Shown: piece after piece, positions 31,983-56,981 of the stretch
Position numbering within the stretch: position 1 is the stretch's first letter
Layout: each line of letters starts with the position of its first letter
Assembly: GCA_029569495.1 (NCBI GenBank)
Contig: JAKQTB010000118.1
Coordinates: forward strand, 3,628 to 67,627
Origin: Pseudomonadota bacterium
Lineage (GTDB): Bacteria > Pseudomonadota > Gammaproteobacteria > Burkholderiales > Methylophilaceae
Reading direction: 5' to 3'
DNA: 64,000 nt
Position numbers and translations under genes: made by a program
The notes under the pieces: generated by a model
Databases searched by the model: none
The model's input: the letters and a program-made list of their open reading frames with translations, nothing else
What the model was told of the DNA's origin: nothing

Positions 31983-33365
31983 CTAGGTTAATTCTACAGT
32001 TTCAAGATACTCAGCGACTTCAACATTCCAGCGTAATTGCTCTTCAATATGCAAGCGCATGGCATCCGCCGCAACGGGTTCGCCGTGAACCAAAAAGGTC
32101 TTTTTCGGTGGGTTTTCAAAACCGTTTAGCCAAGTAATGATTTCTGAATAATCTGCATGGGCGGATAAGTTAGAAACATATTCCACTTGTGCGCGTACTG
32201 GTACGTATTCGCCATGAATTTTAATACTTTCAGCGCCATCAAGCATGGCCGCGCCGCGTGTGCCGGCTGCCTGAAAACCAACAAAAAGAACGGTGTTTTT
32301 AGGGTCTGGCGCGAACGCTTTTAAATGATGTACTACGCGCCCGCCAGAGGCCATGCCACTTGCAGATAAGATTATCATTGGCCCTTTTGAAGTGTTGAGT
32401 CGTTTAGATTCATCTACACTATTAACAATGTGGGCGGTGTGACAGAGCGCCTGGCTTTGCTCATGCGTTAAGCGATGTTCATCTTTAAAGTGATTAAATA
32501 TGGCGGTGGCATCAACTGCCATGGGGCTATTGAGGTAAACAGGCGTGTCCTTGGCGATGGCATTAGATGCTTTAAGTAGGTGAATGTAATACAGCAACTC
32601 TTGCGCGCGGCCCACGGCAAAAACGGGAATGATGACAACGCCTTTGCGTTTGACGGTTTGGTTGATAATTTCAGCGAGTTTAATTTTGGGGTCTGATTTG
32701 TCGTGCAGGCGATTACCATAAGTGGATTCCAGCACTAAATAGTCAGCTTGTTGGATGATTGCAGGGGCTTTCATCAAAATGTCGTGTGGTCGCCCAATGT
32801 CACCAGAAAAAACAATTGACGTTTTTTGGTTGTGAATGCGCACAAAAGCTGAGCCCAATATGTGCCCATTTGGATATAGCTTTGCGAATAAGCCGTCACC
32901 TAAATCAATGTCTTGCTCGTACGGCACAGGTGTTAGTAGTGCTATGGCTTTTTGAGCATCTTCCTGTGTATAAAGCGGCAGCGCGGGGGTATGTTTAGAA
33001 AATCCTCCTTTATTGGCGTATCTCGCTTCTTCTTCCTGCAAATAAGCTGCGTCTAAAAGTAAGACTTCGCACAGGTCACGTGTGGCTTCGGTGCAATACA
33101 CTTTGCCAGAAAAGCCGTTTTTAACTAACAATGGTAAATAGCCACTGTGGTCAATGTGCGCGTGGGTCAAGATGACTGTTTGGATTTCTTGCGGGTTAAT
33201 TGGCAATGCGGCCCAGTTTCTCAGCCGTAATTGTTTAAGCCCTTGAAATAAGCCACAGTCTATTAAAACGCGCTTTTCGTCCCCTTGGGATGATTCACTT
33301 GTTAAGAGATATTTAGAGCCTGTTACCGTGCCTGTAGCGCCTAGAAACGTGATTTTCATTTGCAA
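31983..33365 (-). CDS. MBL-fold beta-CASP hydrolase (RNA-metabolising type)
   Basis: HAHIDHSG motif, beta-CASP region and C-terminal RMMBL-like end. 460 aa. Confidence 0.8.
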   Translation of the reverse strand: MQMKITFLGATGTVTGSKYLLTSESSQGDEKRVLIDCGLFQGLKQLRLRNWAALPINPQEIQTVILTHAHIDHSGYLPLLVKNGFSGKVYCTEATRDLCEVLLLDAAYLQEEEARYANKGGFSKHTPALPLYTQEDAQKAIALLTPVPYEQDIDLGDGLFAKLYPNGHILGSAFVRIHNQKTSIVFSGDIGRPHDILMKAPAIIQQADYLVLESTYGNRLHDKSDPKIKLAEIINQTVKRKGVVIIPVFAVGRAQELLYYIHLLKASNAIAKDTPVYLNSPMAVDATAIFNHFKDEHRLTHEQSQALCHTAHIVNSVDESKRLNTSKGPMIILSASGMASGGRVVHHLKAFAPDPKNTVLFVGFQAAGTRGAAMLDGAESIKIHGEYVPVRAQVEYVSNLSAHADYSEIITWLNGFENPPKKTFLVHGEPVAADAMRLHIEEQLRWNVEVAEYLETVELT

Positions 33366-33976
33366 TCTCCCGAGCTGGATTGGTCTTCTTGGTATTCTTT
33401 ATTGAGCGCTACGCGTATTGCTTCCAGTTTTGCTTCATAGTTGTCAGCTTCGCCGTATTCTAGAAAGTGCGCATAACGGCTATGTGTGCCTAAAATTTTG
33501 CGTGCGTGTTTAATGGGGCAGAAATATTGCTCAGTTCGCGCCACAATTTCACTAATGTAGGCAATCATGCCTGTGCCGTAGGCGCAGTAAGTGCAATGAA
33601 ACTTTTCAATAAAATTAAGATAATTGAGCTGCTGACGGTCAAAAATAATGTAGTCAGAACGTTTTACTTTTTTAATCCCGTAGATTGGAAAGCAGGTGAG
33701 TTGATAAAAGGTGATAAATAAATCCGTGATGAGTAAAGGCACAATCATTGAATAAATAATGGGCCCCGTAATTAAGTTTTGTGGCCTATCGGTGATGAGC
33801 CAGCGAAAGAAATTTCGTTTTAGCCGACGATGCGTTTCTTTGATGGATTGTTCAAACTCAACGCGTTTACCTTTAATTTGAAAAAATATACTGGATTGTT
33901 GTTCGTTAAGGGCTGTGCGAAGCTCATCTTCGAGCGAGGTGATTTGGGCTAACAGTTGCTGAATACGGTCGTTCAT
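33356..33976 (-). CDS. uncharacterised membrane protein with coiled coil and Cys/His-rich C-terminal region
   Basis: 206-aa ORF. Its stop overlaps the MBL gene start by 10 nt. Contains a TM hairpin and the motifs HCTYCAY and YFCPIKHA. Confidence 0.5.
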   Translation of the reverse strand: MNDRIQQLLAQITSLEDELRTALNEQQSSIFFQIKGKRVEFEQSIKETHRRLKRNFFRWLITDRPQNLITGPIIYSMIVPLLITDLFITFYQLTCFPIYGIKKVKRSDYIIFDRQQLNYLNFIEKFHCTYCAYGTGMIAYISEIVARTEQYFCPIKHARKILGTHSRYAHFLEYGEADNYEAKLEAIRVALNKEYQEDQSSSGDCK

Positions 33977-34068
33977 CGGTGCTCCAGTTTTTATGGCACA
34001 TTATTATTTAACGCACAGACGCCGATGCTTACTCTTTTGAGGTGAGAGTAAGCACTCACATGGTAAGT

Positions 34069-34635
34069 TTACCAGGTTCTAATTCGACCAACGTCCATGT
34101 GCACAAAATTTGAACCCGGGTAATAGCCGACACCGCCTCCTTGCAACGCAATTGCAGCTTCTCTCACATGTTTTAAAGGCGTGCCTTCAATGCGAATATC
34201 AATGGCTTTACCTTGCATGTGCAAACTGCGTTTGGCGACGCCGCCAGAATTAGCGGCTAAGTTTGCATTGGTTTTGGGTGAGCGGTAGCCTGAAATAATT
34301 TGGAATGGTTGATTGGTACCGAGTGTGCTACGTAAGCTATGAAGCAAATCTAGTAGTTGCGGGTCCATTGGCAACACTTCATCTGTACGAAAATCGCGTA
34401 AAATGTGGTCAATGCCAGCCAGTGCATCTGGAATGTAGCCACCTTCAGACCAATATTCGGCTTTGAGATTTTCGCCAGTGTGTAGATTATAAAAAGCCAA
34501 CTCGCGAACGATAGTATCTTTGGCATCTTGTGGCTTGAAAGTAGCAAGCGCAGGGCGACTGCTAAGGCCTGCCAAAGCGAGCGCCATGCTACTTTTCAGT
34601 AGATTGCGGCGTGTTTTGCAAATTTCATTTTTCAT
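34069..34635 (-). CDS. DUF882 / peptidase M15A (YcbK/MepK-like) periplasmic peptidase
   Basis: Tat-like signal TRRNLLKSS and SGYRSP...H..G.A.D-type motifs. Confidence 0.75.
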   Translation of the reverse strand: MKNEICKTRRNLLKSSMALALAGLSSRPALATFKPQDAKDTIVRELAFYNLHTGENLKAEYWSEGGYIPDALAGIDHILRDFRTDEVLPMDPQLLDLLHSLRSTLGTNQPFQIISGYRSPKTNANLAANSGGVAKRSLHMQGKAIDIRIEGTPLKHVREAAIALQGGGVGYYPGSNFVHMDVGRIRTW

Positions 34636-34661
34636 GGTTTGGTACCTCTTTATTAACTTAG

Positions 34662-35591
34662 CTAATATTCGCGCGTGACATCTCTTGCAATGCCGTCGCG
34701 CGCTTCTAGCACATGCTTTGCGCGCTCCCAGTCAATGCGCTCTGCTAACATGGCGTCATTTGCCATTTGTTCAAGTGCCTTTAGTGAAGCATCCAGCTTG
34801 CGATACGCACGCTGGTTTTTATAAATGTTTTGATGAGCCTCAACAAAAATTCTACCCTCAGATTCTGCTAAAAGCAAAGGGGCATAAATAATATTGCCTG
34901 TGGCTTCTGGTTCAATCTGGTTAAACAAAACTTCAATATCATCTGGATGCAAACGGATGCAGCCGTGACTTTGAAAGCGATAAATACTGGCAGGTGCCGT
35001 GGTGCCATGAATGCCGATACCAGACAGGCTTAAACCCAGCCAATATTTACCCAGCGGATTATTTGGGCCGGGCGGTACATGCGTTTTCACGGCTTTACCT
35101 TCACGTCGCATTTCTTCTTGAATCGATATCGGCACAATCCAAGTTTTATTGGCTATTTTGTTCTTAACTTTAAATTCCCCTGTAGGTGTTGGCCAAGTGG
35201 GCTTGCCCAACGCCACAGGATAGGTCAGATTCAATAGCCCATCTTGATAAAAATAAAGCATGCGCTGCGGCAGGTTGATCAGTAAATCCAGCCCCTGAGC
35301 ATCGGGCACGATATGCCGATTATCGATTTGCAAGGTTTGCTCGGGTGTTAGTGCTGCATTTGGCTTTAAGCCATTTTCCCGCGCTAACACCGCGCTTGAT
35401 ATACCAAAACGTGCGCTAATTTTAGTGAGTGTATCACCAGCCTGCACTGTATACTCAAATACGTTGCCACTTAACTGCCAAGATGCAGACTGGGCGAACG
35501 GAAGTGTGGTACTTGTCAGGCAACTGGCAAATATTAACCAGCGCGCCCATTGCAACCAGTTTACATGTTGTTTATCGCTTAAAAAACCCAT
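34662..35591 (-). CDS. L,D-transpeptidase with LysM domain
   Basis: LysM motif YTVQAGDTLTKISARFG and YkuD catalytic motif SHGCIRL. Confidence 0.8.
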   Translation of the reverse strand: MGFLSDKQHVNWLQWARWLIFASCLTSTTLPFAQSASWQLSGNVFEYTVQAGDTLTKISARFGISSAVLARENGLKPNAALTPEQTLQIDNRHIVPDAQGLDLLINLPQRMLYFYQDGLLNLTYPVALGKPTWPTPTGEFKVKNKIANKTWIVPISIQEEMRREGKAVKTHVPPGPNNPLGKYWLGLSLSGIGIHGTTAPASIYRFQSHGCIRLHPDDIEVLFNQIEPEATGNIIYAPLLLAESEGRIFVEAHQNIYKNQRAYRKLDASLKALEQMANDAMLAERIDWERAKHVLEARDGIARDVTREY

Positions 35592-35730
35592 TGATTAATA
35601 TCACCAGTTTAACAGTTAATCGACAGTATACCTCTACGTGCTAGCACGCATTCTTAAATGTGGAATGAATGTTTATATTGGAACAATAAGCTTTTATTGG
35701 TTCAAATTGAAAAAAAGTATAGGAGATACT

Positions 35731-36102
35731 ATGACCGCAATCAACAAGCAACACATTGCCACACTTAAACTTGCGATGGAATCTGAGTTAGCGCGATTGT
35801 TGCATGAAGTAAAAGATGAGATGGACCCAGCACTCAGGCCGAGTTTTGCCGATGTGAGCGGCGAAGTGACTGATTCTGGAGATGAATCTATTGCGGAATC
35901 TGTGGTGGATTTGGACAACGCCATGATTGGTTTGCATCTGCAAAAAGTGAATGATTTATATGCTGCACTCGATAGAATACAGGCCGGTGTTTATGGCATT
36001 TGTGGTGACTGTGGTGAATCGGTCAGTGTAGAGCGATTAACAGCCTACCCGACAGCTAAACGCTGTATTAACTGTCAAACAGTGCGTGAAAAAAGAGCAT
36101 AA
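35731..36102 (+). CDS. DksA/TraR-family C4 zinc-finger regulator
   Basis: CGDCGESV...RCINCQ zinc finger. ATG 35731 has a GGAG RBS (track ORF starts at 35638). Confidence 0.75.
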   Translation: MTAINKQHIATLKLAMESELARLLHEVKDEMDPALRPSFADVSGEVTDSGDESIAESVVDLDNAMIGLHLQKVNDLYAALDRIQAGVYGICGDCGESVSVERLTAYPTAKRCINCQTVREKRA

Positions 36103-36269: not shown

Positions 36270-36770
36270 CTAGCGCGTCCAATACACCCGAACCAAATTT
36301 TCTCCAGGGGTATGTTCTACTTTTAATTCACCTTGATAGGCGTGGTGGATTGCTTCACCGATACCGCGGGCTAGATGCGTATCCGTTGTTGTGACTAGCA
36401 ATGCCCCAGCTTGATTTTCTAATGCAATGATACGCTTTAGTGGGTGCTCTGAGCGCTCATGTTCAGCATGATGTTGAATTAAGCGCCTTATTTCTTCACT
36501 ATGGCTGTCAAAAAATGGGCCTTTCAATGTCACGTAACCCGCAGGTGCGTTGTCATTCATGCGGTGACAAGCTGGGCATGTGACATGGTCGGCATCGGTA
36601 GGCGCATTTATCCATTGCCATCGCCCTTCATGATAAACCGCACCGCATTGCCCACAGACCGCAGGCTCTGCTAATTTACCCTTGCTTTTATAAGCGTCCG
36701 CATCTTGCTCAAAACCTGGGCGATTAAAGTTACCGGGATTGTGGGTTGAAGATGTTTTGTTGATAGTCAT
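36270..36770 (-). CDS. uncharacterised zinc-ribbon protein
   Basis: 166-aa ORF with CGQCG...CPACH. I recall similar proteins in USP-rich stress loci, but this is unverified. Confidence 0.45.
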   Translation of the reverse strand: MTINKTSSTHNPGNFNRPGFEQDADAYKSKGKLAEPAVCGQCGAVYHEGRWQWINAPTDADHVTCPACHRMNDNAPAGYVTLKGPFFDSHSEEIRRLIQHHAEHERSEHPLKRIIALENQAGALLVTTTDTHLARGIGEAIHHAYQGELKVEHTPGENLVRVYWTR

Positions 36771-36832
36771 GGTATATTTCCTTTCGTGTGTAGTTAATAT
36801 GCTTTTTAAAATGCGTTTGCAGAGGCCAGTCC

Positions 36833-37282
36833 CTAGCGCCGTTTCGTTGCTTCGTTTTTTTGTTCGCGAACCACTAACTTACTGAACGCACCAAGCTCTT
36901 TGCCGAGTAGTAGCAGTAGGTCGTCCAAAGTGATGATGCCGAGCAGACTGCCTTCATCGCCTACGACTGGCAGGCGCCGTATGCCTTTGCTTGACATCAA
37001 TGTAATGGCCTCTAAAACACCTGAGTTTTCTTTTATGGTTATCAGGCCATGCACCATGATATCGCCGGCAGTAATCACCGCGCTATCGAGCTCCGTGGCC
37101 ACCACTTCCACTACGACATCACGGTCAGTGACAATGCCAACCGGTACGGTTTTATCTTTGTGGTTTTCAATCACCACCACATCACCGACATGATATTGAC
37201 GCATGAGCGAGGCCACATGCAGTATGGTGGCATCACGTTGCACGGTAATGACTTCACGATTACAAATTGCACTTATGGTCAT
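36833..37282 (-). CDS. CBS-domain pair protein
   Basis: Two CBS repeats. 149 aa. Overlaps the ackA stop by 4 nt. Confidence 0.8.
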   Translation of the reverse strand: MTISAICNREVITVQRDATILHVASLMRQYHVGDVVVIENHKDKTVPVGIVTDRDVVVEVVATELDSAVITAGDIMVHGLITIKENSGVLEAITLMSSKGIRRLPVVGDEGSLLGIITLDDLLLLLGKELGAFSKLVVREQKNEATKRR

Positions 37283-38394
37283 GAGGTTTCTCCTTTTATT
37301 GTTATCGGGTTTGTTAAATACCAGCGTCGAGCTAAGCGTTCAATTTCCGCTTCTTCATCGGCTGGAATAATTAAGATAGGTTTCGATGTAAGGGTGTTGA
37401 GGAAGGTCAGGTTGAGTGCATTTGCGTCGGTATTTAAATGAAAGCCAAGAAACGCTAACGGCTCACAAATCAATGCGCGAACCAGCGCGGCGTGTTCGCC
37501 GATGCCGCCGGTAAATACTAGTGCATCAATGCCGCCCACCTTGGCAGCATATCCACCAATTGCGGCACGTACTTGCCGTGCAAAATAGGCCACTGCGAAC
37601 TTGGCACTTTCGCTTTCACTTTCAATAAGCGTCTGCATATCACTGCTTTCACCATCAGATAGCGCAATTAAGCCCATTTGGTGATACACAAGCTTAGATA
37701 ATTCCGCGGCATCAAATTGTTTGCTGAGTTCTAACATGACACCTGGGTCGATTTCACCACTGCGCGTCCCCATCGGAATGCCGCCCGCTGTGCTGTAGCC
37801 CATGCTGGTATCAACAGAAACAAGATTTTCCAGTAGACATAAACTGGCGCCATGACCCAAATGCGCAATGACGATACGTCCATTTGCAGTCTCGCCCAAG
37901 AGCAGAGATAGCTGCCGCGCAACATGCGCATAATTGATGCCATGAAAACCAAAACGCCGTATTTTGAGTGACTGTGGAATCGGTAAGCGGTACGCAATTT
38001 CTGGTAGCGTGCTGTGAAAGCTGGTATCAAAGCAGGCAATTTGCGGGCAAGTAAACTGCTTGGCACATAAATCTACCCCCAGTAAATTACTGGCAAGATG
38101 CAGAGGTGCTAATGGAGTCAGGTTTTCAAGCCGAGCGCGTTCTGCCTCATCTATCAGTCTAGCCGCGTCCGCGACTTCGCCACCATGCACAAACCGATGC
38201 CCGATAATATCGGGTTGGATGTTTGCCAAATCTTCTAGCAATGCTTTAAAAGCGTTGGCATAATTTTTTGCTTGATTGCTATCAAGATGTTTGTAATGAA
38301 AGTTCTTTCGTTCACTACCAGCCTGAAACAAGCTCGCTTTCAAGCTAGATGAACCGCTGTTGATGGTTAGTATGGTAAGTTCGGCCATGTCCAA
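37279..38394 (-). CDS. ackA: acetate kinase
   Basis: N-terminal [12 protein letters not shown] motif and acetate/propionate kinase family sequence. Its start overlaps the end of the phosphoketolase gene by 28 nt. Confidence 0.85.
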
Positions 38395-40772
38395 GCGTCT
38401 TCTTCGGGTAAATCTACCCCATATTCATATGCATAACTACAGCATTCTATTTGTCTATTGCGTAACTTTTCTTGCACATGCGCGCCTATCGTTTGCAATG
38501 CGGGGATGCGATTAATCGCAGCAATTGCTAAGCTAAAACGGTCAATTTCATTTTGAATGGCGAGTTCTAAAGGTGTATTGATGCTGCCCTTTTCTTTATA
38601 GCCACGCACATGCAAGTTGTCATGATTGGTACGACGATACGTTAGCCGATGAATGAGATACGGGTAACCATGGAAGTTAAAAATAATCGGTTTATCTGTT
38701 GTGAATAAACTATCAAAATCTCGGTCAGAAAGGCCATGCGGGTGCTCATTTTGGGGGGTTAATTTGTACAAATCCACCACATTGATAAATCGAATTTTTA
38801 GCTCCGGAAAATACTCGCGTAATAGCGCAGTGGCTGCCAGTGCCTCTTTGGTTGGAATGTCCCCAGCGCACGCCATGATTAAATCTGGCTCAAGTCCTGC
38901 ATCGTTACTCGCCCACTCCCAAATGCCCAAGCCTTTTGTACAATGCTGGATGGCGGCATCCATATCTAAATATTGCAGGTGTTTTTGTTTGTCGCAAACA
39001 ATGACGTTGATATAGTCGGTGCTATTAAGGCAATGGTTTGCCACCGTAAGCAAGCAATTCACATCGGGCGGCAAATAAATACGCGTGATTTCAGGGCTTT
39101 TATTCACAACAATATCAAGAAAGCCAGGGTCTTGATGCGTGAACCCATTGTGATCTTGCCGCCAAACAGTAGAAGTGATGAGCAAGTTAAGCGATGAAAC
39201 TGGCGCACGCCAGGCAACCGCTTTTGACATGGCCAACCATTTGGCATGCTGGTTGAACATCGAATCAATGACATGTACAAAAGATTCATAGGTCGAGAAA
39301 AAACCATGTCGCCCGGTAAGCAAGTAGCCCTCTAACCAGCCTTCAACAGTGTGCTCAGAAAGTATTTCCATCACACGACCATCAGGGGACAACTCTCCAC
39401 CATCTGCATCTTCTGGCAGATAGCCATTGACCCAAGTTTTTTTACTCACCTCATAAACGTCATCCAGTTTATTGGAGCTATTTTCATCCGGGCCGAATAC
39501 GCGAAAGTTCTGGCTGTTTCGTTGCATGATGTCACGCAGGAACTTGCCTAGCGGCTTGGTATTCGGGGCTGAAATTTTCCCATGAGCGTCTAAGGCTAAT
39601 GCATGGTCTTTAAAATCAGGCATGCGTAAGGCTTTACGAATGAGACCACCATTGGCTTGTGGGTTGGCGCTCATCCGCTGGTTACCGGATGGCGCGAGCG
39701 CCTTGAGTGAAGGTATAAGTCGCCCATTATCGTCAAATAACTCTTCGGGTTGATAGCTGCGTAGCCAGTTTTCTAACTGCGCTAGGTGTTTTGAATCTTC
39801 TTTCACCTTACCTAAAGGCACTTGATGCGCGCGCCAAAACCCTTCCACTTTGTGACCATCCACTTCTTTTGGGCCAGTCCAGCCTTTTGGGCTGCGCAAC
39901 ACAATCATTGGCCAGCTAGGACGCGTAGCGCTATTATTTTCCCTCGCATTTTTTTGAATGCGCCTGATTTCATTGACGCATGTTTCTAGCGTGCTGGCCA
40001 TTATTTTGTGCATCGTGAGGGGGTCGTCGCCCTCAACAAAATAGGGTTCCCAGCCATAGCCCTTAAACAGACTTTCAAGTTCTGCATGCGGAATGCGCGA
40101 GAGAATCGTGGGGTTGTTGATTTTATAACCGTTGAGGTGCAGGATGGGTAACACAGCGCCGTCATGAATAGGGTTTAAAAATTTATTTGAGTGCCAAGAA
40201 GTCGCAAGCGGGCCTGTTTCTGATTCGCCATCCCCTACAACAACAGTCACCAATAAATCGGGATTATCGAAAGCCGCCCCAAAAGCATGTGAAATGCTGT
40301 AACCCAACTCACCCCCTTCATGAATTGAGCCCGGCATTTCTGGCGTGCAGTGGCTACCGATGCCGCCGGGGAATGAAAACTCTTTAAAAAACTGGCGTAA
40401 TCCCTCTTCATCTTCGCCTTTGTTTGGATAAACCTCGCTGTAGGTGCCTTCTAAATAAATGGGTGCTAGTACACCAGGTGCACCGTGGCCAGGGCCTGCA
40501 AGAAAAATAGCATTCAGACCATATTTTTTAATTAAACGATTGATGTGAATATAAGCAAAACTTAGCCCTGGACTTGAACCCCAATGCCCAAGCAGGCGCT
40601 GTTTAATATGTTCAGGCTTGAGCGGTAATTTTAATAGTGGATTATCGCGCAGGTATATCATGCCAGCCGCCAGGTAATTACATGCGCGCCAGTAGGCATT
40701 GATTTGTTGAAGTTCATGCGCTGATAGCAGCTGTTGTTCTGCATGCTCGATACTGCTTTTTGAACGGCTCAT
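38367..40772 (-). CDS. xfp: xylulose-5-P/fructose-6-P phosphoketolase
   Basis: 801 aa with signatures [11 protein letters not shown] and EGGELGYS and a TPP-binding GDGE. Confidence 0.9.
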
Positions 40773-40801
40773 TTTCCCACCTGTAAAAACGCTAAAAGTG
40801 A

Positions 40802-41266
40802 TTATTTATCTGATTCAGCCGCATGCATATGCTTAACCAGCAAGACAGGTACTGAACTTTTGCGTATGACGGTTTCAGCATCACTGCCTAGCACTAGACG
40901 TTCGACGCCTCTAAGGCCGTGCGTTCCCATCACAATTAAATCAGCAGGCCACGCATTTGCTTCATCTAAAATCAGTTTTGAAACGCGGTGACCAAAAGTC
41001 TCTACCATTTTAGTCTCGGTTTTAACACCTACGTTGGCGGCTTCAGTCTCTGCACTTTTAAGTACCTTGTGTCCATTTTTGCGTAATATATCGTCGATAT
41101 ACACCACATTGAAGTCACCTGTGGCATCGGCGATTGGAAAATAAAGGTCAATTACATTGATAAAACGCAACGTTGCTTGCTGGTTTTTAGCCAGTTTTAT
41201 CGCCTCTATCATGCCGCAGTTTGAAGTGGCGCTGCCATCCACTGGGCAAAGTATGTGTTCGTACAT
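40802..41266 (-). CDS. universal stress protein (single UspA domain)
   Basis: UspA fold motifs ILCPVDGS and [15 protein letters not shown]. Confidence 0.85.
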
Positions 41267-49101: not shown

Positions 49102-49248
49102 TGGATTGACCTTACCTTATAGTGTTATTGCATACTGATCGTTCGCTTTGGTTTTTATCTGACATCAAAGCACTTATTTAGGGTTGATTTTACCGCCATC
49201 GAAATTTGCTTGCTACGCGTGTGAACACGTAGCTTCATCTTGCAAGAC

Positions 49249-49866
49249 TTAAGTCATTAAATCACTTTCATGCACAATGCGAGCGAGGTCTAGCAAGTTT
49301 GTAGCCCCTGTTTTATGCATAATTTTAGATTTGTGAATTTCTACCGTGCGATGGCTAATGCCTAGTTCACGGGCAATATGCTTATTTGTATGGCCTTGCA
49401 CAGCAAGTAGCATCACATCACGCTCTCTATCGGTAAGCTCAGCAAGTCGCGACAAGGCTTCTAGATGATGAGAGTTTTCCGATAACACCCGTTCAGACTT
49501 TAGTATTGCCGCTTTTACTGAGGCTAAAAGCTTTTCGCGTGTTACAGGTTTGGTAAGAAAGTCTACTGCGCCTGCTTTCATGGCCTGCACGCTCATTGGA
49601 ATGTCGCCATGGCCGGTGAGGAAAATGACCGGTAATAATATGTGGCGTGCCAACATCGCTTTATGCAAATCCAGACCACTCATGCCAGGCATGCGAATAT
49701 CAATGATGGCGCAGCCGCGGCACTCTGGCTGATAATGGGTTAAAAATGCTTCAGCGCTCTCATAAGTTTGTACAGCAACGTTGTCCAAATCAATCATCAG
49801 AGACAGCGCGTCACGAATAGCGGGGTCATCATCCACAATAAAAATCGTCGTGCTGTTGGCGTTCAT
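49249..49866 (-). CDS. FixJ/NarL-type response regulator
   Basis: Receiver domain (IFIVDDDPAIRD) plus LuxR HTH. ATG 49866 avoids overlap with the kinase (track ORF starts at 49929). Confidence 0.85.
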   Translation of the reverse strand: MNANSTTIFIVDDDPAIRDALSLMIDLDNVAVQTYESAEAFLTHYQPECRGCAIIDIRMPGMSGLDLHKAMLARHILLPVIFLTGHGDIPMSVQAMKAGAVDFLTKPVTREKLLASVKAAILKSERVLSENSHHLEALSRLAELTDRERDVMLLAVQGHTNKHIARELGISHRTVEIHKSKIMHKTGATNLLDLARIVHESDLMT

Positions 49867-49918
49867 AGGATTGTATTTTCCGAGTGTTTTAAAAGTTAAT
49901 GAACCGATATTGCATATT

Positions 49919-51415
49919 TTATGGTGCAAAAGGTAATGTAAAGTGAAAAATAGCGCCTGATTCTACGTTAGGTTCCAGCCATAGCTGCCCACCGTTCGAT
50001 TCGACTAAAGCACGGCTAATGGCAAGTCCCATTCCGATTCCTGTAGGCTTGGTGGTAAAAAAAGGCTCGAATATTCGCTTCACCGCTTCTGCGGGTATGC
50101 CTGGCCCACTATCCTGCACTGATACATGCCCCATATTAAGGTTTTTGTTCGTGCGTACCGTTACGGTAATGGTTGAGTTGTTGGTGCCAATGCTACGCAT
50201 GGCTTCCACGGCATTACGAATTAAATTAACCAGTACTTTTTGTATTTGTATACGATTTGCTAATACCTGAGGCAAATTTTGCTCGAGTTCCAGTGCCGGT
50301 TGAAATTCTTTATAACCGTCAGATCTGGCAATATTCAGTGCATCTTTCACAAGCATATTTAAATCAAAGGGTGCAACCACAATGTTGCCAGCTTGCAAAA
50401 AGGCAAGTAATTCATGCAAACTGGTTCCTGCACGTTGCGCTTGGGCAACACAACCCTCAAGTGCACGCTTTAGTTTATCCGTGTTGAAATTAGCATCACT
50501 CAGTGCATGGAGGGCAACTTCACTGTAAGCTGAAATGGCAGCTAAGGGTTGATTTAGCTCGTGTGCAATCGCAGAGGCCGTTCTTGCTGCGACTTGTTGT
50601 TTAAATATAGATTCTGTTTCTGAACGTTGTTCTTGTAGTTTAGTTTCAAGCTTTTTACGTTCAGTAATGTCTTGTGCAATACCCACCAGTCTCGTGGCAT
50701 GATTGTCCTCAAAGTGCATGCGCCCTGTCGTGGCAATCCAATGTTCTGTGCCATCTTTTGCATTAATGATGCGAAATTCAGCATTATATTCCCCTGTGCC
50801 ATCGGGGTCGGTGGCTAAAATTAAGGCGGCTTGTCTGGTTTCACGGTCTTGAGGATGAATCGCTTCAATAAATTTTTCGTATGAAATTGTGCTGTCTGAA
50901 TCTCCACCCCACAATTCGCGCATGCGCTCGTCCCAATGCACGATATTCTGCTTGGCATCAAAATCAAAAACCCCTAATCCAGCAGAACGCCTCGCCAGTT
51001 GTAAACGCTCTTCACTGATTCTTAACGCATCTTCAGCTTCACGGCGATGACCAGCCACATAAAAAGTAGTGAGTACGTAAACTTGGTCTTTAATAGTAAC
51101 GGGACTCAAACTAATATCCACGGCAATTTTTTTGCCAGAACCCGTTAAAGCGAAAAGCGCTTTATCTTTGCCCATCGCGCGCTTTTCGGGCTTGTTAAAA
51201 TAAGATTGGCGCTGATGTTGGTGATGATTGCGATAGCTGACAGGAATAAGTGCCTCAACTGCAAGGCCGCACATCGCTTCGGCAGAATACTCAAGTAGCG
51301 ATAGCGCCGAGGCATTGGCTTGAAGAATAATGCCCGCATTGTTTACCAATAACATGGCATCTGCAGCGGCTTCAAAAATCGCTTCAAAACCCAGGTGTTT
51401 GATTAAATCTTTCAA
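49919..51415 (-). CDS. FixL-like PAS-PAS sensor histidine kinase (cytoplasmic)
   Basis: H-box AHELNQPLAAISAY is typical of FixL. The first PAS aligns with the FixL haem pocket. No TM segment. Confidence 0.8.
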   Translation of the reverse strand: MKDLIKHLGFEAIFEAAADAMLLVNNAGIILQANASALSLLEYSAEAMCGLAVEALIPVSYRNHHQHQRQSYFNKPEKRAMGKDKALFALTGSGKKIAVDISLSPVTIKDQVYVLTTFYVAGHRREAEDALRISEERLQLARRSAGLGVFDFDAKQNIVHWDERMRELWGGDSDSTISYEKFIEAIHPQDRETRQAALILATDPDGTGEYNAEFRIINAKDGTEHWIATTGRMHFEDNHATRLVGIAQDITERKKLETKLQEQRSETESIFKQQVAARTASAIAHELNQPLAAISAYSEVALHALSDANFNTDKLKRALEGCVAQAQRAGTSLHELLAFLQAGNIVVAPFDLNMLVKDALNIARSDGYKEFQPALELEQNLPQVLANRIQIQKVLVNLIRNAVEAMRSIGTNNSTITVTVRTNKNLNMGHVSVQDSGPGIPAEAVKRIFEPFFTTKPTGIGMGLAISRALVESNGGQLWLEPNVESGAIFHFTLPFAP

Positions 51416-51682
51416 TGGATTTACAGCCTAATTATTTGGTTTATCGTGTTGGAATCTAGCAACGCAGTCTAGTAAAAAAGTTAAATGATGTCCAATCATT
51501 ACAGATGCATTCTCCAGTTTTTGATATAAGGGCTTGCCCTTACGTGCTAGCCCGAATTTACGTAGAGGGTTTAGTCCAGTACATTGCAAGTGTCGATGGT
51601 GCTTAACTTGCAACGGCTAGTTGCACTAATCCCCCTAGATGAGTGCCGTCGACATTTTTTGGTGTAAGCGAGGAGAAATGCG

Positions 51683-51928
51683 ATGCAACTTTCAAAAGTT
51701 ACACAGCTTAACGCAAATAACCCAATTCCTGTGTATGGGGTTGAAGCCAAAGAAAAAAAACAAGTTAAAGCCAAGGCTGAAAGTAAGAAAACAGAAGTGG
51801 CGGTGGACGGTCAAGAGATGAGTTGTCGTGTGGCGATGTGCGCTTACTTTAAAGCGGAGGCGCGAGGTTTTGAGCCCGGCTATGAGTTAGAAGATTGGCT
51901 AGCGGCAGAGGCTGAGGTGGGGAAATGA
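51683..51928 (+). CDS. DUF2934-family small protein
   Basis: C-terminal motif YFKAEARGFEPGYELEDWLAAE. Confidence 0.6.
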   Translation: MQLSKVTQLNANNPIPVYGVEAKEKKQVKAKAESKKTEVAVDGQEMSCRVAMCAYFKAEARGFEPGYELEDWLAAEAEVGK

Positions 51929-52362
51929 GGTCCGCGCAATTGGTGCAGCTGCAAGGTCAAGTTAAGCGGCGTGGTAGTTTTGTGGCTGTAAGTGCTGAAC
52001 ATGCGAGCTTATGCCCAAGTGAGAAGATGACAGCTGTACTCACGCTGGATGAAAATGGCACCATTTTTGACTGTAACCAAGCGGCGGCAAAGTTGATTGA
52101 TTGTGTACCGAGTAGGCTTAAATGGAAGCATATCTCCAAAGTGATTCCAGAGTTCGCGGAAACGGCTTTGGTGCAAGGCGGTATTGTTAACCCAAATCTG
52201 CGATTTTTATCGCATATCGGTTATCAATTTGAATTGGTGGGTTTAAACGGTGTACATATTGCTTGTGCGCTATTTTTTAATGAAGTTGAAGATTTTGGTC
52301 GGCATTGTTTAAGAATGATTATTCGACCAGTAACAGAAGAAAATCAACTTGTATTTGAGTGA
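51925..52362 (+). CDS. small stand-alone PAS-like protein (tentative)
   Basis: ATGA overlap with the DUF2934 gene. The LDENGTIFDCNQAAAKL segment resembles a PAS core. The true start may be the internal Met at 52027. Confidence 0.45.
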   Translation: MRSAQLVQLQGQVKRRGSFVAVSAEHASLCPSEKMTAVLTLDENGTIFDCNQAAAKLIDCVPSRLKWKHISKVIPEFAETALVQGGIVNPNLRFLSHIGYQFELVGLNGVHIACALFFNEVEDFGRHCLRMIIRPVTEENQLVFE

Positions 52363-52381
52363 AGTTGCAAAAAGGAAAAAA

Positions 52382-52858
52382 ATGGTTCATTTGATTAAAA
52401 AGCGTTTTATTGTTACAGCAGCCGTGCTGTGTGGTTTTGTGTTACCTCAGTATGGTAGTGCTTCGGCCTTAATGCCGACGCAAGCGCAAAATGAAAGTGG
52501 CGTGACCTATATCACTGGCGGTATTGCTGAAGAAGCTGAGATGATGCGGAGTGTCGCTAAAAACTACACATTAGAAATGGCGTTTGTACAAAAGCTTAAA
52601 CAACAAGAAGAATTTATCTCTGAAGTAACCGTTAAGCTCATCAACGCCAAAAAAGACGTTGTACTGGACACCATTACCAAAGGGCCTTATTTATATGTGA
52701 ATGTGCCGTCTGGGCGTTACACAATTGTTGCCGAGTTTAATGGGGTAGAAAAACACCAGCAGGTCGTGGTCAATGCTAAAAAACATCAAAAAGTAGTATT
52801 TTGGTGGCCTATTACTGAGTTGCCGCAGCCGGAAGATCGTTCAGAGCCCATTGAATAA
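52382..52858 (+). CDS. secreted carboxypeptidase-regulatory-like domain protein (tentative)
   Basis: Signal peptide after ATG 52382 with an AAGGA RBS. Contains the PSGRYTIVAEFNG beta-sandwich-like motif. Confidence 0.5.
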   Translation: MVHLIKKRFIVTAAVLCGFVLPQYGSASALMPTQAQNESGVTYITGGIAEEAEMMRSVAKNYTLEMAFVQKLKQQEEFISEVTVKLINAKKDVVLDTITKGPYLYVNVPSGRYTIVAEFNGVEKHQQVVVNAKKHQKVVFWWPITELPQPEDRSEPIE

Positions 52859-52915
52859 AAGTAGTTGAACTATAACGAGATTGAATAAAAGAAAACTAAC
52901 AAAAGGAGAATAAAA

Positions 52916-53230
52916 ATGGATTTGTCTAACAAAAATGCAAGTAAAGACCAATTGGTGAGTGATTTTAAAGTGGTGGTGGCTGATGCTGAAGCGCTGTTGA
53001 AAGCTACCGCGAGCCAAGGGGGTGAAAAAGTGGCGGAAGTGCGTGCAAAAGCAGAAAAATCACTCCATGCCGCAAAAATTGCCCTAGCTGAAGCGCAATC
53101 TGTGGTGGTTGAAAAATCAAAAGAAGCGGCAAAAGCCACTGATGTTTATGTGCATGACCATCCTTGGAAATCAATTGGTTTTGCTGCCAGCGTGGGCTTG
53201 GTGGTTGGCTTGCTTATTGGCCGTAAATAG
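52916..53230 (+). CDS. YqjD/ElaB-family (DUF883) membrane-anchored stress protein
   Basis: C-terminal HPWKSIGFAASVGLVVGLLIGR anchor and a helical N-terminal region. Confidence 0.75.
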   Translation: MDLSNKNASKDQLVSDFKVVVADAEALLKATASQGGEKVAEVRAKAEKSLHAAKIALAEAQSVVVEKSKEAAKATDVYVHDHPWKSIGFAASVGLVVGLLIGRK

Positions 53231-53254
53231 TTTATTTGCTGACGAGGCGATTAA

Positions 53255-53635
53255 ATGGCTGAGGACAGCAGGGGGTTGTTTGACTCGCTGACCGCGTTTG
53301 CAAGTACTTTAGTCAGTATTGCGCATACGCGGTTGGCGTTGTTATCGAATGATTTAGAAGAAGATCGCGCCCGTTTATTTTCGTTGGTTTTGCTCTATGT
53401 TGCCGCGATGTTTTTTATGATTGTGGGCGTGGTGCTCGCCATTATTTTAGTGGTCTACATCTTGTGGGAAAGTCATCGATTGTTGGCGCTTTCTTCTTTA
53501 GCAGGCCTATTTTTGCTGTTAGGCGTTGGCCTTTGCATCACTGCATTGCGAAAATCCAAAACAAAACCTAAATTGTTTTCATCAAGTTTGTCTGAGTTGG
53601 TTAAAGATAAAGATAGGCTAGATGCGCATGAATAA
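53255..53635 (+). CDS. YqjE-like two-TM membrane protein
   Basis: Follows the yqjD-like gene. Two TM helices. Confidence 0.55.
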   Translation: MAEDSRGLFDSLTAFASTLVSIAHTRLALLSNDLEEDRARLFSLVLLYVAAMFFMIVGVVLAIILVVYILWESHRLLALSSLAGLFLLLGVGLCITALRKSKTKPKLFSSSLSELVKDKDRLDAHE

Positions 53636-53918
53636 AAAGCTCAAAGCATTGGCTGATAGGCGTGAGCGATTACTTCGTGATTCTGATTTGCAGCGCGAGC
53701 AACTCGCCGGCGCTGTCAATGGATTACGCGCACCGCTTGCGTTGGTAGACCAAGGGGTGGCGTTGATTGGTTTTTTTAAGAAGCACCCAGTATTACTTGC
53801 AAGCAGCAGTGCGCTGATGTTCAAAGTATTGCGGCCAAGTCGGCTGGGAAAATGGCTAAGTCGCGGATTATTTGCTTGGCAGATGGCGCGTAAGCTACAT
53901 TCTAAATTTTTGGCTTAG
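53622..53918 (+). CDS. YqjK-like protein
   Basis: Overlaps the end of the yqjE-like gene. Position and size match the yqjD-E-K arrangement. Confidence 0.45.
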   Translation: MRMNKKLKALADRRERLLRDSDLQREQLAGAVNGLRAPLALVDQGVALIGFFKKHPVLLASSSALMFKVLRPSRLGKWLSRGLFAWQMARKLHSKFLA

Positions 53919-53928
53919 GGGCAAAGCG

Positions 53929-54495
53929 TTGGATATTGCGCCGGCTGGTCATCGCACTTGCTTATATCAAAGTGAGCAATTGGAGGCCGTATTGGATCAA
54001 ATGGCTTGGCAAGCGGCAGGGTATTTGGCAGGAAAACAGCGCGTCATGATTGTTGGAATTTTACGACGCGGCGCGCCTTTAGCGCAAATGCTGCATAACA
54101 GGCTGGTGCGTAAGTTTGATATGGCGCATGTTGAATTGATGCACTTGCAAATTAAGCGCTATGCAGATGATTTAACTTTACTTCACCCAGAAACCCAGCT
54201 GACTGAAAACCCGATGCAGGCAACATTGAATCTCGCACATACTTCGGTGCTGGTGGTGGATGATGTGATGTATCACGGGCATTCCATGCTGCGTGCAGTG
54301 GAATATTTAGCCAGAAAGCAGGCGTTGGAAATTAGAACTGCGGTGCTGGTTGACCGCGGTGCGAATAAACTGCCTGTGCGGGTGGATATTACAGGCGTGA
54401 GACTGGATGTGGCACCGTCAGACATCATTGAGTGCAATGTGCCGCCTTACGAAACAAGTTTTAAAATTGACTTACTGAAGCCTAGTATCAAATAG
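53929..54495 (+). CDS. type I phosphoribosyltransferase-fold protein (PyrR-like architecture)
   Basis: PRPP motif VLVVDDVMYHGHSM. The track ORF starts at 53872, inside yqjK. TTG 53929 with an upstream AGGGG is the likely start. Confidence 0.6.
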   Translation: MDIAPAGHRTCLYQSEQLEAVLDQMAWQAAGYLAGKQRVMIVGILRRGAPLAQMLHNRLVRKFDMAHVELMHLQIKRYADDLTLLHPETQLTENPMQATLNLAHTSVLVVDDVMYHGHSMLRAVEYLARKQALEIRTAVLVDRGANKLPVRVDITGVRLDVAPSDIIECNVPPYETSFKIDLLKPSIK

Positions 54496-54506
54496 GTACC
54501 TGAGTA

Positions 54507-55136
54507 ATGTTTTATGACCGTGAAGATGCAGCCCGCCAGTTAGCTAAAAAACTAGAGCATTTGCGTGGCAAAAATCCGCTCGTGTTGGCGATTCCTCGAG
54601 GCGCTGTCAACATGGCGAAAATCATCGCCGACAAACTAAGTGGAGATTACGATGTTGTGCTGGTGCGTAAGTTACGCGCGCCCTATCAGCCGGAATTAGC
54701 CATTGGCTCAGTGGACGAAAGTGGTTGGACCTATATTGCAGATTATGCGGCTTCCGTAGGTGCTGATAATGCCTATATAGAGAATGAAAAAAATCTTCAA
54801 CTGCGTACAATTCAACAACGCCGCGCTATTTATACACCAATACGTGCGCCACTGGCGGTGGAAGGACGTGTGGTTGTGGTAGTGGATGATGGGTTGGCCA
54901 CGGGCGCCAGTATGATTGCAGCATTGCATAGTTTGAAAAACAACCATACAGCGCGACTGATTTGTGCTGTTCCTGTGTCGCCGCCAAGCACTTTAAATAA
55001 AATCGCCCAATATGCAGATGAAGTCGTTTGTTTGGCGTCACCCGATGATTTTCAGGCAGTAGGTCAATTTTACCTGAATTTTCCACAAGTGGAAGACGAT
55101 GAGGTGATTGAGATTTTAAAGGCGCCTGTAGAATAG
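54507..55136 (+). CDS. phosphoribosyltransferase-family protein
   Basis: PRPP motif VVVVDDGLATGASM. 209 aa. Confidence 0.75.
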   Translation: MFYDREDAARQLAKKLEHLRGKNPLVLAIPRGAVNMAKIIADKLSGDYDVVLVRKLRAPYQPELAIGSVDESGWTYIADYAASVGADNAYIENEKNLQLRTIQQRRAIYTPIRAPLAVEGRVVVVVDDGLATGASMIAALHSLKNNHTARLICAVPVSPPSTLNKIAQYADEVVCLASPDDFQAVGQFYLNFPQVEDDEVIEILKAPVE

Positions 55137-55176
55137 GGTTGTTGGATTTTATAGATGGAATAGCTGAAAAGATTGA

Positions 55177-55653
55177 ATGATGAAAATTAAATTATTAACA
55201 GCAGCAATGTTGTTTTCGGCATTCTTTAGTAAGGCACATGCAACCGACGTGGGCGTTTCGGTCAGTATTGGTCAACCCGGGTTTTATGGGCGAATTGATA
55301 TTGGCGATTACCCTTACCCGCCTCCGCGCGTAATTTATGGCCAGCCTAGAATTGTTGAGCGTGTGTACATAGAACGCGAGCCTATTTATTTGCGCGTTCC
55401 GCCGGGTCATGCCAAAAATTGGCCCAAGTTTTGCGGGCGATATCATGCCTGCGGTGAGCCTGTCTATTTTGTTCAGGATAACTGGTATAACAATGATTAT
55501 GCACCGCTTTACCGTGAATATCATCATGATGACAGCCATGAAGCCTATGACGACTCAAAACATGACAAGCATGAATATAAACGTCAAAACAAAGGTAAAT
55601 CAAAAGGGAAAAGTCACAAGCATTTAAGCGATGAGAGGCATCGTCATCTTTAA
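55177..55653 (+). CDS. secreted protein with His/Lys/Asp-rich C-terminal tail
   Basis: Signal peptide ending AHA, Pro-rich core and tail HHDDSHEAYDDSKHDKHEYKRQNKGKSKGKSHKH. Confidence 0.5.
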   Translation: MMKIKLLTAAMLFSAFFSKAHATDVGVSVSIGQPGFYGRIDIGDYPYPPPRVIYGQPRIVERVYIEREPIYLRVPPGHAKNWPKFCGRYHACGEPVYFVQDNWYNNDYAPLYREYHHDDSHEAYDDSKHDKHEYKRQNKGKSKGKSHKHLSDERHRHL

Positions 55654-55705
55654 GGCTATGCTTTAGCGTTATGAATTTAACTTACAATCGCTCAACAAAC
55701 CAAAC

Positions 55706-56659
55706 ATGAAATTTAAAGATTATTACGAAATTCTTGGTGTATCGCGGACGGCAACAAGTGATGAGATTAAAAAAGCTTATCGAAAACTGGCGCACCAGTA
55801 TCACCCAGATATATCAAAAGACCCTGCGGGAGAAGAAAAATTTAAAGAAATCGGTGAAGCGTATGCCACATTAAAAGACAGCGAAAAACGTGCAGCTTAT
55901 GACGCGTTAGGCAGTCACCCATCCGGCCAGGAATTCAGGCCGCCGCCAAATTGGTCAGGCAGTCAGGGTGGCCAGAGTTATTCATTTGACGACATCGATT
56001 TATCTGATTTATTTGCAAATTTTACTGGCAGGCGGCAGGGTGAGCAGCACCACGGCGGGCATAGGCCAATACCAGGTCAGGATTATGAACTTGCCATACA
56101 GATTTCACTGGAAGACGCCTATCACGGCACGATGGTTGATTTGAATTTCACCGTACCTGAATATGACAATCAAGGTCAACTCAAACGCGTTGCACATACT
56201 TTTAAAGCAAGGATTCCTAAGGGCGTGAGCCATGGCCAAAAGTTGCTACTCCGAGGTAAAGGTGGCAAAGGCGCAAATGGCGGTAAAAACGGCAACTTAT
56301 ATTTAAATATCGGCTTCATTGCGCATCCATTATTTCGTGTGGCTGAGCATGATCTGTTGATTGATTTGCCGGTTACCGTTTGGGAAGCCACTTTAGGCGC
56401 AACTGTAAAAGTGCCCACTTTAGATGGGCCAGTAAATCTTAAAATACCAGCTGGTATGAATAGCGGCAAAAAATTGCGCATCAAAGACCGTGGCTTGCCC
56501 AAGCAAAATCAAGCACATGGTGATCTTTTTGCTGTGGTACAAATTGTTGTTTCGCCCAACCCGTCTGAACAAGAAATTGCATTGATGAAACAGGTGGCGG
56601 AAATTTCAAGTTTTAATCCACGCGTGCATTTTGGATTGGATACTACAAATGAAAAATGA
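55706..56659 (+). CDS. cbpA: curved-DNA-binding DnaJ-like co-chaperone CbpA
   Basis: J-domain DYYEILGV...HPD, no zinc-finger region, followed by cbpM. Confidence 0.85.
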   Translation: MKFKDYYEILGVSRTATSDEIKKAYRKLAHQYHPDISKDPAGEEKFKEIGEAYATLKDSEKRAAYDALGSHPSGQEFRPPPNWSGSQGGQSYSFDDIDLSDLFANFTGRRQGEQHHGGHRPIPGQDYELAIQISLEDAYHGTMVDLNFTVPEYDNQGQLKRVAHTFKARIPKGVSHGQKLLLRGKGGKGANGGKNGNLYLNIGFIAHPLFRVAEHDLLIDLPVTVWEATLGATVKVPTLDGPVNLKIPAGMNSGKKLRIKDRGLPKQNQAHGDLFAVVQIVVSPNPSEQEIALMKQVAEISSFNPRVHFGLDTTNEK

Positions 56660-56981
56660 TGACGCAGAATTGTTATGGCTAGATGAGCAGCATGAAGTCA
56701 CAGCAAGCGAACTCTTAGAGCTTTCTGGCTTATCTGCAGAAGAGCTGGAATGGCTGGTAGAAGCCGGTGCCCTTAAACCTATTCGGCGTGTTCCGGCAGC
56801 GGTGACGCAGCAAAGTAATGCGTGGTGCTTTAGTGGTCAATGCCTTATTGCCATCAGAATGGTGTCAAGACTGAAGAGAGATTTTGATTTGGCACCCGAT
56901 GCGTTGAGTTTGACCTTGGTGCTTCTAGAGCGCATTCGAATGCTCGAACAACAGTTACAGCAAAAAAACTCGCAAGCATAA
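56649..56981 (+). CDS. cbpM: chaperone modulator CbpM
   Basis: MerR-like small protein overlapping the cbpA stop by 11 nt (track ORF starts at 56631). Confidence 0.7.
   Translation: MKNDDAELLWLDEQHEVTASELLELSGLSAEELEWLVEAGALKPIRRVPAAVTQQSNAWCFSGQCLIAIRMVSRLKRDFDLAPDALSLTLVLLERIRMLEQQLQQKNSQA

Follow-up and report, generated by a model that had tools for sequence, protein, structure and literature searches.

Gene content and predicted operator

The window analysed here (the whole stretch of 64,000 nucleotides) corresponds to contig C96 of a 2.25-Mb assembly, a 94%-complete metagenome-assembled genome (MAG) of a Methylotenera-like member of the Methylophilaceae. The source organism is a freshwater, methanol-consuming bacterium. 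Between positions 31983 and 56981 of the window lies a 25-kb locus in which stress-related genes are grouped around a FixL-like sensor kinase and a FixJ-like response regulator. Open reading frames (ORFs) were listed over 29-60 kb, and the 29 genes of the locus were scanned with Pfam, most of them also with NCBIfam. All the gene classes that an initial annotation had named in the locus were recovered at their places. The main genes and operons are given below (Pfam assignments, completed by NCBIfam where indicated; USP, universal stress protein; PRTase, phosphoribosyltransferase).

31983..35591, minus strand: beta-CASP RNase and 206-aa protein; M15 (DUF882) peptidase and YkuD L,D-transpeptidase
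35728..36102, plus strand: DksA/TraR-type zinc-finger protein, corrected start (NCBIfam, DksA-like)
36270..41925, minus strand: operon 1, from the nitroreductase gene through USP, phosphoketolase, acetate kinase and CBS-pair genes to a BCAM0308-family zinc-ribbon gene
36833-37282, minus strand: CBS pair
37279-38394, minus strand: acetate kinase
38367-40772, minus strand: phosphoketolase
40802-41266, minus strand: USP, one domain
41320-41925, minus strand: nitroreductase
42168..44142, minus strand: NhaA and cytochrome b561
42168-42734, minus strand: cytochrome b561
42781-44142, minus strand: NhaA
44350..49101, minus strand: probable operon 3, CaCA exchanger, P-type ATPase and tandem USP (also NCBIfam)
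44350-45249, minus strand: tandem USP, two domains
45324-48020, minus strand: P-type ATPase, PMR1/SERCA-like (also NCBIfam)
48100-49101, minus strand: CaCA exchanger (also NCBIfam)
49249..49929, minus strand: FixJ-like response regulator, receiver and GerE/LuxR helix-turn-helix
49919..51415, minus strand: FixL-like sensor kinase, soluble, with PAS1 (haem-PAS-like), PAS2, HisKA and HATPase domains
51683..56981, plus strand: operon 2, 11 genes
52916-53918, plus strand: DUF883/YqjD, YqjE and YqjK
53872-54495, plus strand: PRTase 1
54507-55136, plus strand: PRTase 2
55706-56981, plus strand: CbpA and CbpM

The genes of operon 1 overlap or stand short gaps apart, and its 166-aa zinc-ribbon product corresponds to the NCBIfam equivalog NF040826, lxa_BCAM0308 (202 bits for a cut-off of 100), a widespread family (1667 clusters). 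In operon 2, where intergenic gaps do not exceed 57 nt, the order is DUF2934, a 145-aa PAS protein, a 169-aa protein (secreted and beta-sandwich-like), YqjD/ElaB, YqjE, YqjK, PRTase 1, PRTase 2, a 158-aa protein, CbpA and CbpM. The DksA/TraR-type gene starts at ATG 35728 and not at GTG 35638, as judged from the ribosome-binding site and from alignment with relatives; an ORF beginning at the GTG would engulf its own promoter box.

When the nitroreductase upstream regions of eight genomes are aligned, an invariant element is visible, TATACGTGYTNGCGCGGATT. With a matrix of these nitroreductase-upstream sites, the same element was found before other operons of the relatives' loci, and from these further sites it was defined as a 7-2-7 palindrome, TACGTGY-NN-GCACGNA. 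The whole 2.25-Mb genome was scanned with a matrix made from the relatives' sites only. Its three best matches (31.4, 29.5 and 25.7 bits) all lie inside the locus; the next-best one in the genome reaches 17.4 bits, and the weaker ones fall within coding sequence or are devoid of a -10 element. The three strong boxes of the locus and a fourth, degenerate one are the following.

Box 1, 41992..42012, minus strand: TATACGTGTTCGCGCGGATTT, before the nitroreductase operon; 31.4 bits, best in the genome; -10 element TACTGT at 41966-41971
Box 2, 51539..51559, plus strand: CTTACGTGCTAGCCCGAATTT, before the DUF2934 operon; 29.5 bits, second-best; -10 element TACATT at 51580-51585
Box 3, 35633..35653, plus strand: TCTACGTGCTAGCACGCATTC, before the DksA/TraR-type gene; 25.7 bits, third-best; -10 element TATATT at 35674-35679
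Box 4 (degenerate), 49213..49233, minus strand: GCTACGTGTTCACACGCGTAG, between the regulator and CaCA genes; -10 element TAAAAT at 49187-49192

At the nitroreductase gene, box 1 is conserved in 8 genomes. The 267 bp between the kinase gene and the divergent operon 2 contain box 2; most relatives have an orthologous box at a distance of ca. 120-140 bp from their kinase gene. Orthologues of box 3 precede the DksA/TraR-type gene in four other genomes or loci (G088, G057, G119 and L079). As for box 4, its left half-site is intact and its right half weak, with the -10 element at the canonical 20-nt spacing; box and -10 element are the conserved islands of the spacer that holds them, and the orthologue in a 93%-identical MAG (L001) scores 18 bits, with TAAAGT at +20.

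Among the 85 sites of at least 20 bits in the family, a TAnnnT hexamer is found exactly 20 nt downstream of the 21-mer in 71 cases and within one nt of that distance in 78. This spacing places the centre of the dyad near -42/-43, over the -35 region, which is the position of a class II activator. A sigma-54 reading of a conserved TTGCT near the nitroreductase promoter was rejected, the -24 GG not being conserved among the 8 genomes. As a whole, about 19 genes stand behind a strong box and three behind the degenerate one. No site of at least 4 bits was found in the NhaA/cytochrome b561 promoter region (44143-44349), and the matrix scan detected no box in this genome before the M15/L,D-transpeptidase genes or the beta-CASP/206-aa pair.

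Concerning a possible FixK/FNR tier, no CRP/FNR gene is present in the locus; the genome (G000) has five elsewhere, none of them preceded by a box. With up to 2 mismatches allowed, no FNR-type box (TTGAT-N4-ATCAA) was detected at the promoters of the locus. A perfect FNR/Anr-type palindrome, TTGATTGCTATCAA, is present at 38272-38285 inside the ackA coding sequence, ca. 120 nt from its start, and a copy with one mismatch, TTGATTAATATCAC, at 35591-35604, ca. 30 nt upstream of box 3. Both are possibly due to chance, and a second input of FNR type remains conceivable. Since there are no FNR promoter boxes, FNR/Anr-type control as in the lxa locus of Burkholderia cenocepacia was rejected as the main control and, in view also of the absence of a FixK/FNR gene from the locus, the FixJ-like regulator most likely activates the stress genes directly.

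The two-component system and its distribution

The kinase has its closest relatives in Methylotenera and in Methylophilaceae MAGs. Its dimerisation/phosphotransfer and catalytic (DHp/CA) region matches the FixL chimeras of B. japonicum with 176 bits, and the best NCBIfam models for the two proteins are FixL for the kinase and FixJ for the regulator. Among Protein Data Bank entries, the regulator is closest to StyR (1yio, 160 bits) and FixJ (5xso, 156 bits), with 48 bits for DevR, and its phospho-acceptor Asp and conserved Lys align with those of StyR and FixJ. Read from TTG 49929, the regulator counts 226 aa for 202-205 aa in its relatives; as this ORF is about 20 codons longer, the true start is probably further downstream.

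The PAS1 sequence of the kinase matches solely haem-PAS structures, namely 10jx, RmFixL (1d06) and EcDOS. Its His65, invariant in 20 orthologues, aligns with the proximal His194 of RmFixL. On these alignments, PAS1 is predicted to bind haem.

The family of the 145-aa protein encoded behind box 2 (89 clusters, no Pfam domain) was observed in Methylophilaceae only. An AlphaFold2 model based on 32 sequences (mean predicted local distance difference test score of 71, with 75-91 over residues 31-140) corresponds, by Foldseek comparison, to a stand-alone PAS fold. EcDOS, FixL and the 10jx haem-PAS are among its top Foldseek matches, with TM-scores of ca. 0.5 that non-haem PAS domains equal. Cys50 and Cys114 are invariant in the family, and His69, His97, His111 and His127 nearly so. 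No similarity to the kinase was detected by BLASTP, the PAS fold being visible by structure prediction only. The gene is always first or second behind the kinase-adjacent box. Hypothetically, the protein could exert haem- or redox-based feedback on the kinase, in which case it would be a functional analogue of FixT.

The kinase is present in 40 of the 151 family genomes, belonging to 14 of the 41 genera. The exact pattern TACGTGYNNGCNCGNAT has 78 matches in the 151 genomes vs. 7 for the reversed control. Kinase and box are found together in 34 genomes, the kinase only in six, the box only in five and neither in 106 (Fisher p = 2e-22). A kinase of M. mobilis JLW8 was not among the best 120 protein-search matches; before its orthologue of the PAS-protein gene, this strain has a box of 19.7 bits, with a -10 element at +20. 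In a further genome of the same genus (G079), an orphan kinase orthologue was observed, with no regulator gene detected within ca. 20 kb on either side; boxes before nitroreductase-USP-CBS and PAS145-169 aa units are present elsewhere on the chromosome (L076), so the regulator may also lie elsewhere.

The same genes in the same order were found in relatives of other genera (G119, G057 and G088) and in the 93%-identical MAG. On one side, the regulator and kinase genes adjoin nitroreductase-USP(-phosphoketolase-acetate kinase-CBS-zinc ribbon); on the other side and divergently, DUF2934-PAS145-(169 aa)-YqjDEK-PRT-PRT-(158 aa)-CbpA-CbpM is found. A box-driven operon 1 is present in G057, G119, G088 and others, and the box-driven order of operon 2 in L001, G119 and L004. 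In most relatives the nitroreductase promoter directly follows the regulator gene, where a 7-kb ion module (cytochrome b561, NhaA, tandem USP, P-type ATPase and CaCA) is inserted in this lineage only. In G057, G088 and L004 the beta-CASP/206-aa pair, box-less here, is found in synteny with the locus, and in L062 and L004 it closes box-driven operons.

About 50 further regions of the family were also examined for the genes that follow a box, and the classes of these genes were confirmed by Pfam. Besides the beta-CASP/206-aa pair at operon ends, these boxed units recur:

nitroreductase-USP, at times followed by phosphoketolase, acetate kinase, cyclopropane fatty acid (CFA) synthase, CBS, BCAM0308 and a zinc-dependent alcohol dehydrogenase (Zn-ADH)
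DUF2934-PAS145, at times followed by the 169-aa protein or Hsp20, YqjDEK, two PRTases, the 158-aa protein, CbpA, tandem USP, CbpM and P-type ATPase
DksA/TraR, at times preceded by a small cytochrome c
an Acg-like 366-aa nitroreductase with DUF302
an APH/AAA_33 protein with an ADH and a short-chain dehydrogenase/reductase

P-type ATPases and tandem USPs thus recur in box-driven operons of relatives; CaCA, NhaA and cytochrome b561 were never found behind a box in the regions listed from other genomes.

Since the common operator occurs at three (probably four) promoters of the locus only and synteny extends to other genera, the clustering goes beyond chance, and the linkage proposed in the initial annotation holds in related genomes, where the genes are not scattered. 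Its view of a single FixLJ-centred regulon is supported by the shared operator of NarL/FixJ type, which co-occurs with the kinase; it does not extend to NhaA/cytochrome b561, M15/L,D-transpeptidase and beta-CASP/206-aa, all of which are box-less.

At the level of the order, a box scan of 401 genomes exceeded the control only weakly, and chance in larger genomes could plausibly account for much of the excess; a small number of palindromes, from three other families, do look convincing. In a genome from another family of the order (G255:C113:12617-13664), four exact TACGTGCTGGCGCGGAT copies at ca. 343-344-bp spacing form a tandem repeat and are not promoters. A Sulfuritalea MAG (L103/L104, 6845-19117) carries a BCAM0308-family gene divergent from genes for a PAS-HisKA_3 kinase and a GerE regulator, and nearby genes for a ribosome hibernation factor fused to a cold-shock domain, a radical-SAM protein, methyltransferases, a PRTase, DksA/TraR and RtcB. 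The Methylophilaceae box is absent from this cluster, which is a second, differently wired stress cluster with several cargo families in common.

Proposed circuit, alternatives and known systems

We consider it probable that the locus is a self-contained, directly controlled regulon of a gas-sensing two-component system of FixL/FixJ type. In the proposed circuit, the soluble kinase would respond to a diatomic gas by means of haem on PAS1, a drop in O2 being the most likely signal, and would phosphorylate the FixJ-like regulator. A regulator dimer would then sit on the 16-bp palindrome, centred ca. 42-43 bp upstream of the transcription start, replacing the -35 element, and activate sigma-70 promoters in the class II manner, with no FixK step. 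Dimers of the NarL family use this 7-2-7 layout. The half-site TACGTG resembles the FixJ consensus GTAMGTAG / GTACGTAG obtained by systematic evolution of ligands by exponential enrichment (SELEX; PMC4999443, PMC13327599). From layout and half-site, we infer that the adjacent regulator binds the box.

The targets would fall into four sets: ATP from substrate-level phosphorylation together with stress proteins (nitroreductase, USP, phosphoketolase, acetate kinase, CBS and the BCAM0308-family protein); growth arrest (DUF2934, the stand-alone PAS protein, ribosome tethering by YqjD/E/K, two PRTases and CbpA/CbpM); a DksA/TraR-type RNA-polymerase factor; and probably ion homeostasis (CaCA, the Ca-type P-ATPase and the tandem USP). 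The output would be anoxic persistence, by which an obligately respiratory methylotroph could survive anoxic spells. Phosphoketolase would split fructose-6-phosphate of the ribulose monophosphate (RuMP) cycle, or xylulose-5-phosphate, into acetyl-phosphate, from which acetate kinase would make ATP without respiration, ribosomes, nucleoid and transcription being halted meanwhile. The fuller proposal, a direct, FixJ-type, DosR-like persistence programme without a FixK tier that combines two features undescribed elsewhere, a family-restricted PAS feedback partner and an anoxic ATP route through phosphoketolase and acetate kinase, is put forward tentatively and is open to considerable doubt.

Several points weigh against such a regulon. 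Both proteins of the two-component system score under the equivalog cut-offs of their NCBIfam models (244.7 for a cut-off of 850 with FixL, 216.6 for 255 with FixJ). The position of the distal Arg of FixL is occupied by Lys here and by Arg in most orthologues, so that ligand selectivity may differ. Box 4 is weak (3.3 bits), and the 25-kb stretch includes seven box-less genes. Further boxes or a FixK target could sit on the contigs missing from the 94%-complete MAG. Finally, inheritance as a block partly predicts the link between box and kinase, and their co-occurrence is therefore no proof of the binding protein.

The substitution of the distal Arg, the basis of O2 discrimination in FixL, also bears on the nature of the signal. 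With the same circuit, the haem-PAS kinase could report nitric oxide (NO), carbon monoxide (CO) or the nitrosative or redox stress of denitrification, and the regulon could protect against reactive nitrogen. A nitroreductase heads the most conserved operon, Methylotenera are described as denitrifiers (PMC11978286), and the signals of the DosS/DosT kinases include NO and CO in addition to O2 (PMC3721108). We judge this other signal rather unlikely, yet the most serious of the alternatives: most orthologues keep Arg at the distal position, the cargo concerns energy and growth arrest (phosphoketolase, acetate kinase, ribosome tethering, CbpA) rather than NO detoxification, and no Hmp, NorB or NnrS gene was found behind a box. 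Falling O2, rather than NO, CO or redox, would then probably be the signal.

The locus could also be a general regulon of stationary phase or energy starvation, its PAS domains sensing a metabolite or a redox cofactor, without haem or gas, and the likeness to hypoxia regulons would then reflect common growth-arrest functions. YqjD/ElaB, CbpA/CbpM, USPs and DksA-type factors are indeed functions of stationary phase and growth arrest in E. coli, and the haem of the kinase is a prediction. However, the exclusive match of PAS1 to haem-PAS structures, its invariant proximal His and the FixL-type kinase core make this improbable compared with gas sensing.

Less probable still is that a regulator encoded elsewhere reads the palindrome, the adjacent two-component system having other targets. 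The joint presence of box and kinase could simply reflect inheritance as one block, the link between box and regulator is drawn from sequence, and the pattern has a match in five of the 111 kinase-less genomes, with three sites of G018 that look genuine. Yet in minimal loci (e.g. the regulator and kinase genes with nitroreductase-USP-CBS), the regulator is the sole gene that resembles a DNA-binding regulator of the window locus; the half-site is like that selected by FixJ, the layout fits NarL/FixJ dimers, and the box lies beside the kinase gene in most genomes. A chance neighbourhood of unrelated stress genes that are not co-regulated, for which the seven box-less genes and the lineage-specific ion module might speak, is hardly credible, being already contradicted by the restriction of the three best matches of the genome to locus promoters with a fixed -10 spacing, by the co-occurrence with the kinase and by synteny across genera.

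Compared with known systems, the predicted FixLJ-type regulon has much in common with the DosR/DevR regulon of M. tuberculosis (DosS/DosT-DosR). Both have a NarL/LuxR-family regulator at palindromic boxes of many promoters (its binding being predicted here), and the kinase, a haem-based gas sensor in M. tuberculosis, is predicted to be one here as well; the cargo classes in common are USPs, nitroreductases, a CBS protein, a P-type ATPase and a PRTase-domain protein; through the Methylophilaceae relatives, an Acg-like nitroreductase and Hsp20/alpha-crystallin are added. The DosR parallel drawn in the initial annotation is sound for the regulator family and the cargo classes. The kinase differs in having PAS domains, with a predicted haem-PAS of FixL type, instead of a haem-GAF, and the operator, TACGTGY-NN-GCACGNA, is not the Dev box. 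The regulator is also nearer to FixJ and StyR (156-160 bits) than to DevR (48 bits), and the regulon is confined to one locus and adds phosphoketolase/acetate kinase, YqjDEK, CbpAM and DksA/TraR.

The parallel with the lxa locus was supported in its gene content, notably by the BCAM0308 equivalog. lxa is also a compact chromosomal cluster of an aerobic betaproteobacterium, without compositional sign of a genomic island, and holds USPs, a nitroreductase, acetate kinase, an RNase of metallo-beta-lactamase fold, two-component systems and a cation ATPase beside a USP and cytochrome b561 (PMC3721108). Its promoters carry an Anr-like TGA-N6-TCA motif (PMC3721108), and the current model runs from FixL through FixJ and FixK to lxa (PMC12071387). 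In contrast, the present locus has a FixJ-type box, with neither Anr/FixK-type promoter boxes nor a CRP/FNR gene, and is devoid of the polyhydroxyalkanoate synthesis, class II ribonucleotide reductase, ribokinase and ABC transporter genes of lxa.

With the FixL-FixJ-FixK cascades of rhizobia and Caulobacter, it shares a soluble PAS-PAS-HisKA-HATPase kinase of the B. japonicum FixL architecture, a FixJ-like regulator and a half-site resembling the FixJ SELEX consensus GTAMGTAG. The haem-like PAS is the first domain here and not the second. The direct targets known for FixJ are very few (fixK, nifA and some others), its wider action being via FixK; the FixJ-like regulator of the locus, by contrast, seems to control about 20 structural stress genes itself, with no FixK target. 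No paper on this system in Methylophilaceae was found in the literature. Otherwise of a known kind, the system is new in its conserved 7-2-7 operator and in the predicted direct FixLJ-type control of a DosR/lxa-like gene set at a single locus.

Methylophilaceae are partners of methane oxidisers at the oxic-anoxic interfaces of lakes and groundwater, and the locus offers a compact, delimited circuit made of a sensor, a regulator, a predicted operator and about 20 target genes, in which a FixLJ system would be the direct master regulator of a dormancy-type gene set. A 2025 review of hypoxia responses asks whether the likeness between DosR, Anr and lxa results from common ancestry or convergence (PMC12071387). 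On this question, the cargo recurs here, BCAM0308 equivalog included, and the regulatory tier differs. If the fuller proposal holds, Actinobacteria and Proteobacteria would have put together their hypoxia/dormancy regulons repeatedly from a single stock of genes, under NarL-family switches that can replace one another. DUF2934, the 145-aa PAS protein, the 169-aa and 158-aa proteins and the BCAM0308 family are candidates for new functions in anoxic survival.

Flanks and other features of the window

The left flank consists of core genes (dnaG, rpoD, tRNA-Met, an AsmA-like gene, an AI-2E transporter and NnrD), and the right flank of cytochrome genes followed by CopA.

31018-31890, left flank: NnrD
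57239-60880, right flank: operon of cytochrome b, SHP (DUF1924) and dihaem cytochrome c (DHC), with an OmpR-type two-component system

The matrix scan found no FixJ-type box at the cytochrome b/SHP/DHC operon (57239-60880), which also adjoins the locus in the 93%-identical MAG. Horizontal acquisition of the locus was rejected, since GC content and base composition are flat across it and the same as in the flanks (the skew changes only with gene orientation), dnaG and rpoD adjoin it, the sole tRNA stands 3.6 kb to its left, and no integrase domain was found among the locus ORFs scanned, as the initial annotation had already noted by eye. The patchy distribution of the kinase (40/151 genomes) points to gain and loss within the family and not to a recent island.

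Intergenic elements of ca. 60 nt, with a GC-rich stem of 14-16 bp and a TTTATTTATAA-like loop, resemble repetitive extragenic palindromic (REP) sequences or terminators. Ten copies are found in the 64 kb, in both orientations and mainly at gene ends, one of them between NhaA/cytochrome b561 and the USP gene:

989-1049
5311-5371
9731-9793
15420-15480
22033-22093
31891-31951
36182-36242
44260-44320
57057-57117
60908-60968

The copies at both ends of the locus were considered as mobile-element boundaries and rejected as such, the element being spread through the whole window. Outside the locus, a 27-nt periodic repeat at 17314-17547, rich in Ala, Lys and Glu (AAKA...), lies in the C-terminal part of a 159-aa ORF (17059-17538) and resembles histone-like or AlgP-type tails.

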